From assembly GCA_965112155.1 (NCBI GenBank), contig OZ218099.1: DNA of 64,000 bases. One strand, written 5' to 3'. Below are positions 10,676 to 22,673 of the stretch, piece after piece. A program made the translations under genes and the position numbers. The first letter of the stretch is position 1; every line of letters starts with the position of its first letter. Origin of the DNA: Podarcis liolepis. Taxonomy: Eukaryota. The notes under the pieces are model-generated. The model was not told the DNA's origin, did no database searches, and was given only the letters and a program-made list of their open reading frames with translations.

Positions 10676-11529
10676 GTATGAGAGAGCTTTGTCTATTTGG
10701 AAACAAATTTTTGTTTCTTTACTTCAGCTGGTGCATTCTGTTACAAATATCATTTCCTTATGTGCTCTTCATTAAAGGCTGTAGAAGAAAAGAAATTTTC
10801 TGGTTCAAGATGTCAGAATTTTAAATGATCATGACATAAAGTCATACCTTGTGTGCATGACTTTCTAACAATGAAATTTCTAAATGTTATCTACAGTGAC
10901 GGGATTTCTCATTCCACTGAAAGTGGGAAGCCACTACTTAGCCTCAATATATGAGTTTGAGAGCTGTTCTTCTACCCCTGCTCTTTTGGGTACAACACCA
11001 AATGAAGTGTAGAGCTGGCATGGGTGCACAGCCATTGATACTAAAATAAATAGGAAGACTATGTTCATAGCAGGGCTTCTGGATATGAAGCCAGTTCAGA
11101 AAGGAACCACCGATGCATGCATGTGTGTCATACATCGCACAGTCCAGGATATATTTTTCATTTGCAGCGAAAGAGGGAAACCCCAAGCAATTGATGGGGG
11201 AAAGCTGCAAGCAAAGAGATAGAAGAAACTGTTTAACATCCTAAATTAAACAAATATTGAACATCAAGTCCTTCAGCAAGGGACTTCAAAATGCAGAAGC
11301 CTAGGTCCTTAGTTCTGCTGTGTCCACTTCCCTTCTACTTTCTGTTAGCTTCTGTATTTTTGAAATTACCAGATGAAGGACCTGATAGATTTTAATATGC
11401 TGGATTATAAATACATTTGGGATATTAAAAATGGTTTTGTTTTTATTTGCCTTCACTTTTAGTCTGTCATGGCTGTAAGATGTCATCTTTTGTCTCTCTC
11501 TTTTTTTTTTAATCCAAACTTCTATCTAG

Positions 11530-11695
11530 CTCGAGAACATCGGAAAGCCCCAACATTCATCTTTAAACCTCAAAGCACAAGAGTTTATGAGGGGGATTCG
11601 GCCAGACTTGAATGCCAAGTGTCTGCTATCCCCCCACCACAAATATACTGGAAGAGAAATAATGAAATGGTACAATTCAATACAGACAGAATCAG
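11530..11695 (+). CDS. MYOT: Myotilin exon, Ig2 first half (AREHRKAPTFIFKPQ...VQFNTDRI)
   Basis: CTAG acceptor, AG|GTGGGT donor, phase 1/2. Confidence 0.95.
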
Positions 11696-12424
11696 GTGGG
11701 TATCTGTATCAATGATGGGCCTCTCAGCTGTTCAGGAGTCAAGTTGAATCCAATACTGTTGGTGGGTCTAGTTTGAAGGTTTACAAACTGGTATGTGGTG
11801 CTTTTGGCTCCAAGCATCGGGGAAAAGGGAATTGCTGTGATTTTCAACGTTATCACTCTACAACAACAAAAAAGTGTTGTTCAGAAGACTGTACTATAGT
11901 CTGCAGTGTAGGAGAGCATTTTTGCTTTAAGCAATCTTGAGCTAGATGTGGACTAGATGTTGAATGTGGAGAATGGGCCCTCCAAAGTGACTGCATAATG
12001 GGAATTTGCAAAATATTAGAAACTCTTAGACCTGAAAAGTGGGAGGGGATCTGCAAGATGAGGACTTGCTTACATGGCCTGATACTACTTTCAGCTCAAG
12101 GGCACTGCTGGACATTATCTATAGCACCCCCTGGGTATGGTCTGAAGGGGCATGAGACTGTCATCTTGTTGAAGCTAAGTAGGCCTGCCCAGGATCTTGG
12201 TGGATGACCACCTGGAAAACACATTCATGCTGCTTTGAGTTTCATGATGGAAGAAAGGCAAAACATAAATATCAGCAAATTTATATATGCAGCTGAATAT
12301 AGGTCTGTGTCTTAGAAATACTGGGCAATGCTTAACAAGAATGATTTTCATGAAGTATATTAGTCTTAAGGTAGGAGAGGGGACTGTAATCTTCAATTTT
12401 TTTGTCATTTTTCTCTTTTCCTAG

Positions 12425-13245: not shown

Positions 13246-13421
13246 CTCACACATACAAGCCAGTTCCAAACCCCAAACCACTGAAGGTTCGACCAACTTT
13301 TAGCAAATACTTGGCACTCAATGGTAAAGGTTTAGATGTGAAACAAGCTTTCTTCCCGGATGAAGGAGAGTTTCAGCGTATGGCTGCACAGTCTGGACTC
13401 TATGAGAGCGATGAACTTTAG
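13246..13421 (+). CDS. MYOT: Myotilin terminal coding exon (...VRPTFSKYLALNGKGLDVKQAF...SGLYESDEL*)
   Basis: TTTCAG acceptor, in-frame TAG at 13419-13421; C-terminal ESDEL is the PDZ-binding type tail of the myotilin/palladin family. Confidence 0.95.
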
Positions 13422-13830: not shown

Positions 13831-13836
13831 AATAAA
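13831..13836 (+). terminator. Probable MYOT polyadenylation signal AATAAA
   Basis: AATAAA about 410 nt after the stop, followed by a GU/U-rich stretch (13860-13910). Confidence 0.6.
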
Positions 13837-16032
13837 ATTTTAAATATAAGACTTGTCATGTGCTTTATCCTTATAAGTTTTGTGAGTTGTTGTTTTATTA
13901 TTATTATGTGAGCTTTGGGTACTCTCTGTTACAGAAATTCTCAACAAAATTGTCATAAACAGTACTTGACTAAAGAAAATTGTCATTAGTATTTGAGTTA
14001 AAGCCAGACAAAGAAGAGAGCATAAAAATAAATCTGAAGGAACTGCACAACTATCGTCAGGCCATAAACAATACAGTATGTTGAATATTTATTTAATTTG
14101 TATTCTGCATTTCCAAAAGCACTCAGGCTGGCAAATATCAAAACATGAAACAGTGCAATTTAAAATAAAATAGAAAGAACATAAAAAATAATATTTAAGA
14201 TAAAGTAATATTTTAAATAAAATGATATAATAATATTAAAAACATTAAAAAATTCAGCATTGCATATTTTTAAAAAATCAGCATTCCATTTGCTCTTATG
14301 AACCAATCTTTTGATGCTACATTTTGGGGTATGTTGGCTGGTTTCACTGGCCTGGTTTGCTGCAGTGCCATGTTGAGCTAAGTCATGGTTTGGCTTAGCA
14401 TGTCCAAACCTGGGCTCATATTCTCCCTGGGGAAGAGCAAAGTTGCCATGATCTCCTCTCTGGGTGCTCATAGATTTTAAGAATTAGTCCGCTGGATAGC
14501 AAAACTTCAGACATAAGGAAAGTAGACGATGGAAGAGTTTTCAACTCCCCCAGTGTCTTGCTTTTGCTTTTTTAGAACCCTACTAGCTTCCGTTAAAAAT
14601 ACTAAAATAGTTAACTAAAGTGCTGGATTCACTGTAATTAATGAGTTTTGACAGACTGAAGTAAAGTCAGCTTCCTGCAGATTGTGAAAGCAAAGTCTAA
14701 GTGATTTTAAACCCTTGCATTCAGGCTATAATAACTTGCAAGACATTGAATGTACTGCTGCATGACACCTTCAGTCTCCAAGCTGTGGGGTTCCAGATGC
14801 TCACCCCAGGGTTCATGTTTCCTTTTGGAAATGAGGCCCAGCAGAGACTGTGGTGTCTTTATGACATATGGTTTATTTACACAAAAACAACCTGAGCCTA
14901 TGATGGAGAGGTTCACAGCATTAGTACTCAAAGAGGGTCTTGCTTTTCCCCTAGGTGCAGATTTGGATTCAAACAGACATCAAACATCCTGCACTTACCC
15001 TCTCTCCAGCTTGCTACCTTTACCAGACTGCAAGCTTTTCCCTCCAGCTCACGTCCAAGCCAACTTTAGGACTCTACTTCAGACTCTGGCTTTGTCTTCT
15101 AACTAACTCCCATTTGCCATTTGGCACAGAGCATCCTCTCTTTGGCGTTCCTCATCAGCTTCCTTTTGTTCTGGCTTATATTTTAAAATACTGGACCCAG
15201 GAATTTAGGGGAATTTGGTACCCACAAACTCATAATACTACAAATACCATGAGCTTTCAGAATCTTTTTATTTTATGGATGTGGTTTGTAAGAAACACTT
15301 GAAGTAGCATCGTTCTAGGTACTCCCTAGGCTGAGCTGCTCTTAAATCCCCCTTCCGTGTGCTGAGTCATAGATTCCTTGGAGTGGAATATCTCTAATAG
15401 TTAACCATTAACATGAATAATAAGAAAAATTTTGTGAGATACACAGGCTGAGACTTTTAGGACTTTTCTCAAAGGCAGCTATTTCATAATTGGGCCCCAG
15501 CAACGTGGTTCTTGCAGCTCCATTCCATCTCTGCCCTCCCTCCATTGGTCAGCCATCTGTGCCCATGGAGCATACCCATAGGCAGTGTTGGGCTTCTTTC
15601 TGCTCCATTTAGGTCTCCTCACTCCTGTTTCTGTAGGTGGAGGACACAGCTGCACTGAATTATTTAGTTGCTCCATTGATGTCCACAGACAGGTCTCTTC
15701 TGGGCCTGGAGGCAATGAAAACTATCTTGTGTGAACCAAGAAGTGACATGCAGGAAATGAGATGCTTCTTTCTACAGTTTTTATATACAGTATTTCTCTG
15801 TTCCCATCAAGAGTCTCTCAACATTCTATGCCACTGAATTAATGGAATGAGTTGGTTTGTTCCTGGTGGGGTGGAGGTAAGGAATCCACACAGGGGTTTT
15901 TCTGCCAATTTTTCTGTACTTATTTATACCTTGGGGTTAGTCTGTACCTGCCAATATTTCTCAGTATTTCGTGTGTTGGGTGTGGTTTTGGCTGCATAAG
16001 CATGAGCACAGGAAGACTCAATATAGAATATA

Positions 16033-16385
16033 AGGTAAAGGTACCCCTGCCCGTACGGGCCAGTCTTGACAGACTTTAGGGTTGTGCGCTCATCTCACTC
16101 TATAGGCGGGAGCCAGCGCTGTCCGCAGACACTTCTGGGTCACGTGGCCAGCGTGACAAGCTGCATCTGGTGAGCCAGCGCAGCACACGGAACGCTGTTT
16201 ACCTTCCCGCTGGTAAGCGGTCCCTATTTATCTACTTGCACCCGGGGGTGCTTTCGAACTGCTAGGTTGGCAGGAGCCGGGATCGAACGACGGGAGCGCA
16301 CCCTGCCGCGGGGATTCGAACCGCCGACCATGAGATCGGCAAGTCCTAGGCGCTGAGGTTTTACCCACAGTGCCACCCGCGTCCC
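16033..16385 (-). mobile_element. Sauria SINE, young subfamily, with 15-bp TSD
   Basis: Full head GGGACGCGGGTGGC on the minus strand; TSD TCAATATAGAATATA at 16018-16032 and 16386-16400. Confidence 0.92.
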
Positions 16386-16432
16386 TCAATATAGAATATA
16401 GATAATAATTTATCATATATTGTATATTGCAT

Positions 16433-16547
16433 TAGTAGATAGGTAGCCGTGTATCTGAAGAAGTGTGCATGCACACGAAAGCTCATACCAAGAACTAACT
16501 TAGTTGGTCTTTAAGGTGCTACTGGAAGGAATTTTTTTTTTTTTATT
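16433..16547 (+). mobile_element. Short Penelope-like element (pLTR) fragment flanked by a 13-bp direct repeat
   Basis: TTGTATATTGCAT at 16420-16432 and 16548-16560; sequence AGGTAGCCGTGT...TAGTTGGTCTTTAAGGTGCTAC recalled as a reptile Penelope terminus; T-rich end. Confidence 0.7.
16451..16488 (+). ncRNA. Minimal type I hammerhead ribozyme motif
   Basis: GTAT-CTGAAGA-A-GTGTG(CATG)CACAC-GAAA-GC-TC-ATAC: both catalytic boxes, stem II, stem I (GTAT/ATAC) and palindromic AGCT stem III. Confidence 0.72.
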
Positions 16548-17599
16548 TTGTATATTGCATGGCATACAACATAATCATAACACTATATAATCCATGAAAA
16601 CACAAAGTACATTTCTAAAAAAAATTGCAACCAATGCTTAAAGCAAGGAAAGCAAGGAAAGTCTAGCAAAAAGCATAAAAAGCTACACATTAAAACTAGC
16701 GACAATAAAGATCAGTGTTACACATTAAAAGCCCAACCATGTAATAACTTACATTATACTGTATGTTTTTAGTTTTAAAAGTGTAAAGTGGGATTATACA
16801 TCCAAGAAATAACGTATGACAATTCAAAAATAGTGAAAAAGTTCATGCAGGTTCTGTGTGCACCTGTTTAGTATCAGGGTGCCTCAGTCATTGTGATTGT
16901 GTGTCTAACTAGAGGCATCTTAATCTCTGAAGCACAGAAGCAATGTGTATCAGAAGCAATGTGCTGGAAAAGGTGGGGTGACAAAATGGATATGCTGTCC
17001 AGTGACTTTGTTCCACACAAATTCATACAGGCAAGAGAAATATGCTTTGGGTTTCTATAGGGCAGATTTCCACATTTTAAAAAATCTGTCATTGCAGATC
17101 GGGCCAACTAAGGAATCCAGGTGCATGAAGAAATATCTGACATGAGGTTGGAAACTAGTTTCAGACTTAATAGATATGCAAAACCCTGCTGGAAAATGGC
17201 AATTGTAGTAGGATGCTGTGACTCAGATATTTATTTCTGATTTATGACTGCTCACAGGGATGCTGGGACATTCCATCTGGAGATATTTTCAAACACCTAA
17301 TCCTTTCCCACCTGATCTTACTTATGAACTTGCTCTATTAAAGTTATTTCTGTCTTCAGTAAGAAGTGGTTTCTGAATATTTAAAAACCCAAAATTACAG
17401 AGAGAAGACAGGAATCAGCAAGAAAGCAGATGATGCATATTATTATACTTTATAAAGATAATAATATAATATTTTAGAGATCAATGGCATGATTTGAAAC
17501 ATCCACATCAATTAACCTCCCAATATTACTGGCAGGATGAAGCTCTTCCAAATTCAGAACTTTCCAGACAGGCTGATTAAACATAGTATGCCGTCAAAT

Positions 17600-19658: not shown

Positions 19659-20316
19659 GTAAGTCCATGGGGAAAAGGGGATTGTTGACATGCAAATGCT
19701 GCTCTCCCCCCCCAAAAAAAACATTTCATGAGGTGCAAATAATGAATTACTTAGTTTGCAAGCCTATGCAACTTGAAAATGGTATAAATGTAGGGTGGGG
19801 TGAGGAACCTTAGGCCCGGGAGCTGAAGGGGCTCCTCAAAGCTTCTCTACCCAGCCCTGGGAACTCTGTCCAGCCTACAGTCCTCACTGGATGAGTTTCA
19901 CAACCTACTTGAACTGTTCTTGAACTGTGTCTTTTAAGTGTGATAAAGCCTCTTGTTTGCCTAGGACGATGATGGAGGTGTGGATGTGAGCTAATGGTTC
20001 CTCATCATGGGGGGAAAGTGACAAGTGGGCCCATTGTTGTTCAATATCTTTATAAATGACTTGGATGAAAGTGTTGAGGGGATGCTAATCAAATTTGCAG
20101 ATGATACCAAACTGGGAGGGGTAGCCAATCCTGCTGAGGACAGAATCCGGATTCAATATGAGCTTAAAAGATTGGAGAACAGGGCCAAAACTAACAAAAT
20201 GAAGTTCACTAGAGACAAATGTAAGGTTCCACCTGTACACTTAGGCAGGAATAGCCAGCTGCACAAATAGAAGATGGGGGACACCTGGCTTCCCAGTAGT
20301 ACATGTGAAAAGGATA

Positions 20317-20707: not shown

Positions 20708-20955
20708 CAGTGGTACCTCGAGTTACAAACGCCTCAGGTTACAAACGCTTCAGGTTACAAATTCTGCTAACAAATTCCAAGGAAGAGTTACCTTGAGTTG
20801 AGAACTTTGCCCTAGGATGAGAATGGAAATCATGTGCCGGCGGCGCAGCAGCAGCAAGAGGCCCCATTAGTGAAAGCACGCCTCTACTTAAGAACAGTTT
20901 CAGGTTAAGAACAGAACTCCAGAACAAGTTAAGTTCATAACTAGAGGTACCGCTG
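20708..20955. mobile_element. Tigger/pogo-like MITE nested in CR1
   Basis: TIR CAGTGGTACCTC / GAGGTACCGCTG, TA TSD. Confidence 0.85.
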
Positions 20956-21462
20956 TACTGTGTCCAGTTCAGGGCACCACAATCTAAGATGGATATTGAC
21001 AAGCTGGAGTATATGCAGAGGAGGGTCACCAAGATGATCAAGGGTCTGGAAACTAAGTCTTGTGAGGAACAGTTGAGGGAATTGGTTATGTTTAGCCTGG
21101 TAAAGAGGAGACTTAGAGGAGATATCTATCTTCAAGTATCTAAAGGGGTGTCACATGGAGGATGGAGCAAGCTTGTTTTCTCCTGCTCCAGAGACTAGGA
21201 CCCGAAGCAATGGATTGAAGTTACAACTTCCTGATAGTAAGAGCTGTTCAACCGTGGAACAGACTCCCTTGGAAGGCAATGGACTCTCCTTCCCTGGAGT
21301 TTTTTAAGCAGAGCTAGGATGACCATCTGTCATGTATGATCTAGTTGAGATTCCTGCATTGTAGGGGGTTGGACTAGATGACCCTCGGGGTCCCTTTCAA
21401 CTCTACAATTCATTGATTCTCTGTAGAACACTGCATTGCAAGAGCTGCATATTTTCCATATA

Positions 21463-21968: not shown

Positions 21969-22139
21969 TAACTGAGGTGATAACTGCCTATTTGATCATT
22001 CTGACCTATTACTAAGACTCCAGTACTTTTGTTTTGGGGTCCTACTAATAAACATTAGGTGTTTGATGTTTGCTAATATGAAGTGTCTTCCCATTTCTCT
22101 TTGTTGCTTAGGATTTTATCCTGATTTCTTTCTTTTTAG

Positions 22140-22273
22140 TGACATTTGGAATGGTGAGCACAGATATGTATTATCTGAACAAAGTTATGGCAGATCTCTT
22201 TCTAGAAACCCCTCTGTCAGATAATGATCATACAGACTTCAAGTCTATGAGCAGCATTGCTGACTTTTGGCAG
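22140..22273 (+). CDS. PKD2L2: PKD2L2 exon 3 (LTFGMVSTDMYYLNKVMADLFLETP...IADFWQ)
   Basis: TTTTTAG acceptor, CAG|GTAAAG donor; LTFGM...YY..KVM..LF...DFW polycystin motif (not in the ORF track). Confidence 0.93.
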
Positions 22274-22673
22274 GTAAAGGTTGTTGTTTTTTAAATGAGA
22301 AAAACATAACTTGATGATAATAAAAATAAACCTGATTTTTGGCACAGGTTTTTGTAGACACATGGTTTCTGTAATCTGCTACTGTCCTATCACCACTAGA
22401 CTGTTTCACACTATAAAGTTAAGGGTAGGTTTGGGTACCCTCAGAAACCTGCCTCGATTGTTGGGAAAGAGTTTGGGGAAAATACATCAAGAGATATGTA
22501 GCAGTAAAGTTGGGGACTTGACTTTTTAATTTTTTTGGCATTAAGTCCTGCCAGGTAGCAGAACTTATATGACTTACTTACTCTACTTTTTATCTTGCTG
22601 TCATCACAATTTGTTGCTATCTGGGATTAACACCATATTGTACCTTGGCGTAGTGATAATCGATTTTGGATTA

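Follow-up and report, generated by a model that had tools for sequence, protein, structure and literature searches.

The window, i.e., the whole stretch of 64,000 nucleotides of Podarcis liolepis DNA that was analysed, contains a myotilin exon at 11463-11744 (best PDB match myotilin, E 3.5e-26). The last exon of this gene has its stop near 13421, and an AATAAA is present at 13831. An exon of a polycystin-2-family gene is located at 22112-22291 (E 1.7e-11). The intergenic region between both genes harbors an insert of 115 nt (16433-16547) that is bordered by the 13-nt direct repeat TTGTATATTGCAT; the two copies, at 16420-16432 and 16548-16560, are identical and can be extended on neither side. 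A first-pass annotation had located this insert between MYOT and PKD2L2, on the MYOT sense strand and 2.6 kb beyond the AATAAA. Its strand and distance are correct, and both neighbors are supported by protein matches, whereas PKD2L2 is the paralogue that we presume the polycystin-2-family gene to be. Within an intron of the latter gene, two open frames (20022-20267 and 20941-21300) read like reverse transcriptase fragments of what we take to be a CR1-type LINE. The features at and around the insert are listed in Table 1.

Table 1. Features at the insert and in its immediate surroundings (TSD, target site duplication)
Feature	Position	Strand	Remarks
SINE-like high-copy insertion	16033-16384 (about)	+	own 16-nt TSD; separate from the 115-nt element
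Left TSD copy, 13 nt	16420-16432	+	identical to 16548-16560; single in empty alleles
Short arm, inverted family 3' tail, about 20 nt	16433-16452	-	tail end faces the left flank
Inversion junction, 4-nt overlap GTGT	16449-16452	.	fits both arms
Long arm	16449-16551 (about)	+	family 5' boundary, hammerhead, T-run; depth 12,700/16,500 versus 0-4 in the flanks
Minimal type I hammerhead motif	16451-16488	+	predicted; core letters, min-HHR consensus, Chrysemys row
T-run	16532-16544	+	13 T, versus about 7-8 in the majority of family reads; lies within the family sequence
Right TSD copy, 13 nt	16548-16560	+	contigs of X1, X2, X13, X14 and X15 run rightwards from 16544/16548, never into the insert
Target sequence resembling the family tail	16559-16571	+	ATGGCA, AC, then AACA with one gap; comparison by eye

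The SINE-like repeat upstream of the insert, presumably a Sauria SINE, has a TSD of 16 nt (16017-32 and 16385-400), the right copy of which ends 19 nt before the first 13-mer. Hence, a Sauria SINE annotated at a distance of 20 bp is confirmed as an adjoining SINE-like repeat, but its name is an assumption. The repeat is present in the public sequencing runs X1 and X3, the contigs of which enter the SINE, and it is absent, together with the 115-nt insert, in X13 and X14. Thus, it is the older of the two insertions. Both elements inserted into one AT-rich patch of 50 nt. In all four runs considered in this respect, contigs of other loci link the 3' end of the SINE to the 5' boundary of the hammerhead family described below (joints of 16384-86 to 16449-59), which may reflect common AT-rich targets or chimeric insertions. 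A 9-nt tandem duplication at 16640-16657 is single in X1, X3, X13, and X14, where nine letters are absent.

Target site duplication and empty alleles

Across the 64 kb, nine direct repeats of at least 13 nt with a spacing of 50-300 nt are found, versus a mean of 0.28 and a maximum of two in 50 block shuffles of the window, from which 157 N were left out. Evidence for the empty site was obtained from public runs, 24 of which were listed and eight, with six organism labels, were used. X13 and X14 each yielded one contig in which 15850-16032 and 16544-16886 are separated by 15 letters. These letters are those of 16401-16415, which is exactly what is expected if the SINE-like repeat and the insert are both missing and each TSD is single. 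In X2 and X15, a contig starts at 16548 or 16544, respectively, and runs rightwards, and it carries 36 or 35 extra letters that are unlike the insert. Since the depth of these right-side contigs (11.2 and 17.9) equals that of the left flank, we read each of them as one contig spanning the empty site. X1 yielded a similar contig with 59 extra letters, and X3 is only suggestive as an empty-site case. Three letter differences at 16434-36 do not fit an empty allele and probably stem from another locus.

Since contigs of relatives show an empty site with a single 13-mer, the 13-nt repeat is a true TSD, as had been proposed; the comparison with related lizards that the first-pass annotation had suggested revealed such alleles in X13 and X14, with X1, X2, and X15 being consistent. 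The insertion is recent and not fixed. The junction of a filled allele is crossed by no piece among the best 30-32 of more than 120,000 and the best 16 of 14,927 in the eight runs, to be read with the caveat that rare alleles get dropped from contigs, and the two raw-read runs X22 and X21, at a cover of about 1.2-1.6-fold, hold little information on the allele at the MYOT-PKD2L2 locus.

The hammerhead motif

The insert contains the letters of a minimal type I hammerhead. It comprises a 4-bp stem I (GTAT at 16451-54 and ATAC at 16485-88), CTGAAGA (16455-61), an unpaired A (16462), a 5-bp stem II (GTGTG-CATG-CACAC, 16463-76), GAAA (16477-80), and CTC (16482-84), with a predicted cleavage site after C16484. 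The palindrome AGCT is located at 16480-83, and loop III is absent. Every coordinate of this layout had been given correctly before, with one small mend: the first A of AGCT is shared with GAAA and is the normal A15.1. The Rfam search that had been recommended yielded no hammerhead match, whether 15500-17500 was searched with E values up to 10 or the whole window with gathering scores; two weak matches to other models (E 2.9 and 5.7) are unrelated. Also, the isolated motif folds no better than shuffled sequences (z-scores -0.44 to 0.81). Therefore, the motif is identified by its core letters, its conservation in a repeat family, and a match in a turtle, and not by its stability.

In reads of the family, the variants within the hammerhead that have a frequency of at least 3% are C16476T (10-12%), G16477A (12-14%), and C16484T (18-22%), and A16469T reached this level in one contig run only. 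Of the core letters, only the CpG G16477 and C16484 vary to this extent, with the caveat that the seeds and the 85% cut-off bias hammerhead variation towards conservation. C16476T and G16477A, located at a CpG, look like neutral decay. An exact 34-nt version of the motif gave 0 matches in each of the metagenome, genome, and viral contig collections, and 0 in full texts of papers. Three other CTGANGA...GAAA strings in the window appear by eye to be without stems.

The turtle match is a min-HHR of Chrysemys picta bellii, which, in the available part of the source, has the same CUGAAGA, bulged A, G-C pair opening stem II, and GAAA, as well as AGCU without loop 3 and a stem I of 4 bp (PMC4209133 Fig. 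S3). Comparison of GCAU/AUGC and GUGGG/CCCAC in the turtle with GUAU/AUAC and GUGUG/CACAC in the insert reveals one compensatory pair per stem. The insert differs in its loop II, CAUG, which makes stem II a perfect palindrome of 14 nt. Like the lizard family, min-HHRs are described as dispersed single copies in the thousands; the Chrysemys row is not starred for a link to an ORF of Penelope-like elements (PLEs), and no such lizard motif is listed in the available part of that source (PMC4209133).

The folding predictions depend strongly on context. Stem I has a probability of 0.64-0.73 in the bare 38-mer versus 0.00-0.05 in four contexts of 99-401 nt, and it is predicted not to form in the context of the locus. 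For two molecules, a duplex of stem II (-30.6 kcal/mol) is predicted to outcompete a double hammerhead (-12.7 kcal/mol). The palindrome of stem II and its loop (16463-16476) is predicted to pair between molecules at -25.2 kcal/mol versus -4.1 kcal/mol for the hairpin, and it could either compete with or help nucleate dimer formation. A bound protein of the element could alter all of these predictions. Single min-HHRs did not cleave in vitro and dimers cleaved weakly, according to the part of the report available (PMC4209133), and the hammerhead motif of Anolis is described, in a source likewise available in part, as needing its protein (PMC11167929). As a lone copy without stem III, the hammerhead of the insert is predicted to be inactive.

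The repeat family and the two arms of the insert

Raw reads of runs X22 and X21 (1905 and 1938 million letters, respectively) were mapped at 85% likeness. Peak depths of 12,708 and 16,522 were found over 16508-15, versus 0-4 in the flanks. For an assumed genome of 1.25-1.65 Gb, a range taken from contig totals, this raw-read depth corresponds to a family of 8,300-14,100 copies, which is probably an undercount; summed contig depth was not used. Of the mapped family reads, 94% continue into sequence unlike the MYOT-PKD2L2 locus. The loose ends, of which the best 24 of 568 were considered, each visible over 30 letters, fall into distinct classes. Those before 16449 share a common sequence (2878 and 3483 reads, agreement 0.74 and 0.71), those before 16451 run into unrelated, AT-rich flanks (1073 and 1471 reads, agreement 0.34), and those behind 16544 share a tail (3024 and 4344 reads, agreement 0.60 and 0.62). 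Thus, 16449-16451 is a sharp 5' boundary common to many copies. The ribozyme cut is not the 5' end of the family: depth does not step at 16485 (ratio 1.05), and no loose end among the best 24 corresponds to it.

The depth at 16436-43 is only 0.12% and 0.22% of the peak, and, therefore, the 5' part of the insert is not normal family sequence on the plus strand. The 16-37 reads covering these positions may represent other copies with the same junction or pieces of the tail on the opposite strand. Indeed, in both raw runs the final 15 of the 30 tail letters behind 16544, read as reverse complement, agree with 16438-16452 at 15 of 15 positions, and this match breaks at 16453. The letters at 16433-37, which would lie beyond the visible tail, are assigned to the short arm by extension. 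The insert is thus composed of two arms on opposite strands, and about 18 nt of family sequence are lacking where they meet. TTGT (16548-51), at the right junction, is compatible with the target as well as with the family and represents the last 4 nt of the long arm; this assignment is based on the A that follows the T-run in 19% of the X22 reads and on a class of loose ends behind 16543 that begins with GTTT. In the tail, about 35-39 nt lie between the point where the long arm ends and that where the short arm starts, i.e., the 30 visible letters plus five deduced from 16433-37. As the short arm, of about 20 nt, is confined to the tail, the pair of arms forms no hairpin.

Head-to-head arms are common in the family. 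Among the best 15 of 321 family joints, all 15 connect opposite strands, and one side is located at 16449, 16451, or 16452 in 13 of them and at 16449 or 16451 in 12, with the other side spread over 16449-16475.

The first-pass annotation had described the insert as a mini-retroelement of 115 bp that ends in a T-rich run, and it lacked two observations, i.e., that the T-run is internal to the family and that 16433-16452 is on the opposite strand. The T-run exists, but, since shared sequence continues behind 16543/16544, it is not a terminal tail: the family extends at least 30 nt beyond it, and a 115-nt unit with a terminal A- or T-rich tail was not found. In family reads, the run contains variants T16539A (19%) and T16540G (49%). 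Nor was a fixed, two-ended family of 115 nt with the same internal order found in the reads, given the depth at 16436-43 and the 94% of reads that run on. The 115-bp family thus dissolves into a composite of opposite-strand arms, and of the mini-element idea a small part is retained, i.e., the sharp common 5' boundary, but not the fixed unit. Further copies were not detected in the 64-kb window by blastn. No description of the family was found in the literature searched; it may well be named in Repbase, Dfam, or subscription journals, which are outside that search.

The family is heterogeneous. Positions 16496 and 16511 show near 50:50 splits, and about 1730-1917 reads depart from the sequence of the window at 16526 into a different T-rich stretch, which together indicate at least two subfamilies. 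A few reads at 16448 show a 14-nt duplication of the 5' part of the hammerhead. Furthermore, in a few contigs, 16520-44 is followed by a return to 16451, producing short tandems that could form double hammerheads.

Origin of the insert

In its organization, the insert looks like an insertion of an endonuclease-positive PLE, and it most likely arose like one. PLEs, in the available parts of the sources, are described as carrying an inverted, 5'-truncated arm and a tail of 30-40 bp at one end (PMC8557442), and as having TSDs of 8-10 bp, inverted pLTRs, and a TATA box plus initiator in the pLTR (PMC3846280). The likely assignment to this class is based on four marks other than the defining one, a linked ORF for a telomerase-like RT and a GIY-YIG endonuclease: a minimal type I hammerhead, which in PLEs is located in the terminal repeat, an inverted arm placed head to head (15 of 15 letters in reverse complement, and 15 of 15 listed joints between opposite strands), a tail of about 35-39 nt at one end only, and a TSD, with empty alleles carrying one 13-mer. 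In addition, the upstream continuation is shared in 2878 and 3483 reads, over 30 visible letters only. Thus, the first of the alternatives that had been offered, i.e., a very short Penelope insertion, is supported by the inverted arms, the one-sided tail, and the TSD. EN+ PLE units, including Adineta Pen2/Pen2a, show the same head-to-head 5' inverted arm, one-sided tail, short TSD, and overlap at the inverted junction, as far as described in the parts available (PMC8557442; PMC3846280). Compared with them, the insert is an extreme minimum without an ORF and with arms of about 100 and about 20 nt, and its TSD measures 13 nt versus 8-10 nt in the PLEs of PMC3846280.

A further likeness, in layout and priming, is with Poseidon of Anolis carolinensis (PMC11167929, available in part). 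In vitro, both strands of its target were cut and extended, two adjacent internal start sites downstream of the hammerhead bracket the tail, ribozyme activity was dispensable, the target is AT-rich, and the ends are independent of the ribozyme cut, as in the insert. The ORF of Poseidon starts in stem II, whereas the ATG in loop II of the insert opens a frame that closes after nine codons (PMC11167929). Metazoan non-LTR retrozymes, as far as described in the parts of the sources available, are likewise non-coding, carry a type I hammerhead, have a TSD of more than 4 nt, and share a probable PLE origin (PMC7229834; bioRxiv 10.64898/2026.07.22.740005). However, they consist of tandem monomers of about 220-400 nt with canonical hammerheads and form circular RNAs, whereas the insert is one composite of 115 nt whose motif is minimal. 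Tandem monomers were not found, as the 64 kb contain one hammerhead copy, and joints that go back are few in the contigs and absent among the best 15 of 321. Neither is the motif a canonical type I hammerhead: loop III and an Rfam match are lacking and stem I has 4 bp.

Altogether, we consider it highly probable that the insert, with its two head-to-head arms, entered the locus recently and belongs to a repeat family of about 10^4 copies. It is likely the dead remnant of a Penelope-like retroelement, and the two ends of one staggered cut likely each served to copy it. Directly observed are the TSD, the unoccupied site in relatives, the copy number, the location of the arms on opposite strands, and an overlap of 4 nt both where the arms meet and at the right junction. 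In the proposed mechanism, the endonuclease of the element would nick the two strands 13 nt apart, generating two 3' ends with overhangs. The bottom-strand 3' end would pair via TTGT with the RNA just past the U-run, i.e., at the upstream start point, and the resulting cDNA, of about 100 nt, would terminate at 16449, a common end of family copies and probably the transcript's 5' end. Priming from the top-strand 3' end would take place at the tail end, about 35-39 nt downstream of the first start point, and this extension would cease after about 20 nt. Joining of the two cDNAs by the 4-nt microhomology GTGT would then drop about 18 nt of family sequence, and the hammerhead, a regular component of the terminal repeat, would have been carried along. 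The marks of the insertion agree with a process in which each target strand serves as a primer at a start point of its own; neither nick falls at the ATT motif that the Poseidon enzyme of Anolis prefers. Searches for twin priming or start sites in Penelope, in listings and starts of abstracts, revealed nothing on this lizard family.

The start of the transcript at 16449-51 is suggested by TCA-GT and an A/T-rich stretch 30 nt upstream. This upstream line, with an A/T stretch and then TCA before GT, resembles the TATA box plus initiator of the PLE pLTR, as described in the available part of PMC3846280. A splice acceptor (TTTCAG) behind the 16449-51 boundary is less favored, since reads starting at 16451 have unrelated flanks (agreement 0.34) and not a common first exon; in D. 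virilis, an intron ends at helix I, according to the part of the source available (PMC4209133). In four of four runs, the letter preceding 16451 in reads with unrelated flanks is G, with T excluded there by construction. This G is possibly, if weakly, cap-derived.

A 13-nt TSD, an inversion with a short deletion, and microhomology are also marks of twin priming by LINEs, a mechanism reportedly described by Ostertag and Kazazian in 2001. All of them are present here, and a SINE inserted only 19 nt away, so an L1-like or other LINE enzyme might have inverted a copy of a passenger RNA by classical twin priming. Nevertheless, we regard this origin as very unlikely, since neither arm has a poly(A) or simple-repeat tail, the short arm begins in the family's own tail, and inversions pivoting at 16449/16451 are frequent in the family, as they are in PLEs in the parts of the sources available (PMC8557442; PMC3846280). 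Still less likely is the proposal that the motif serves the host as a ribozyme, cleaving read-through transcripts of MYOT before they reach the PKD2L2 promoter. The core letters are all intact and the motif lies on the sense strand, 2.6 kb after the AATAAA at 13831. However, it is a single motif without an intramolecular stem III, the predicted probability of stem I is at most 0.05 in the four longer contexts, the stem II duplex is predicted to outcompete the double hammerhead, and the single min-HHR is inert in vitro and the Anolis motif protein-dependent in the sources available in part (PMC4209133; PMC11167929). Besides, the filled allele appears in no listed piece of the eight runs with six organism labels, and a search of public runs, directed at DNA, gave no RNA run containing the stretch. 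As stem I is predicted to be unformed and the filled allele was seen in none of these pieces, a role at the MYOT-PKD2L2 locus is unlikely, and the read-through cleavage envisaged earlier is not upheld.

More serious, if still improbable, is an alternative in which the source RNA was not a full-length element but a short, non-autonomous unit of about 135 nt, running from 16449-51 to the tail, with masters of its own and served by the Penelope enzyme in trans. The locus would then hold a two-armed copy of a mini-element. Such a unit would fit the sharp 5' boundary with unrelated flanks (1073 and 1471 reads) and the contigs with long unique flanks that cover 16449-52 to 16537-45, and non-autonomous derivatives of PLEs have been reported in sources available in part (PMC8557442; bioRxiv 10.64898/2026.07.22.740005). 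On the other hand, reads with the shared upstream sequence (2878 and 3483) outnumber the starts at 16451, short start-to-tail copies would equally result if a full-length transcript were primed internally, close to its 5' end, and few copies have the 115-nt form (the depth at 16436-43 is 0.12-0.22% of the peak). Thus, the stub of a Penelope-like element remains the preferred reading.

The insertion is real and recent, but it is ordinary, since it is a single fragment of a repeat present about 10^4 times and carries a ribozyme motif predicted to misfold; stubs of this type have already been described for PLEs. As one of about 10^4 stubs, it has little weight alone. It can serve as a presence/absence marker, and it is a small but clean example, since an allele without it is available for comparison and the inversion and the two primer junctions are resolved to the nucleotide. 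Its weight would grow if a likeness between target and family tail held across many copies, as this would bear on how PLEs choose their targets.

Such a likeness was noticed, after the fact and at this one site, in the target sequence at 16559-16571. It is doubtful that this reflects a general choice of tail-like targets by this Penelope-type family, either because a GIY-YIG nuclease reads tail-like DNA or because the template RNA pairs with the target, and it could be due to chance or to an old, decayed tail. If true, Penelope-type elements would be partly sequence-guided, and the approximately 10^4 copies allow direct testing. The nuclease of D. virilis needed tail sequence for recognition, as recounted in the available part of PMC11167929. 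Counted from G16550, ATGGCA is located at offset 9 and AC at offset 16 in the target, as in the major form of the family, and the AACA of the target follows after a gap of one base. Since this sequence is present in empty alleles, it predates the insertion, and the top-strand nick falls inside it. In 128,001 positions, there are 49 occurrences of the 6-mer ATGGCA and a single one of the longer pattern, at the target.
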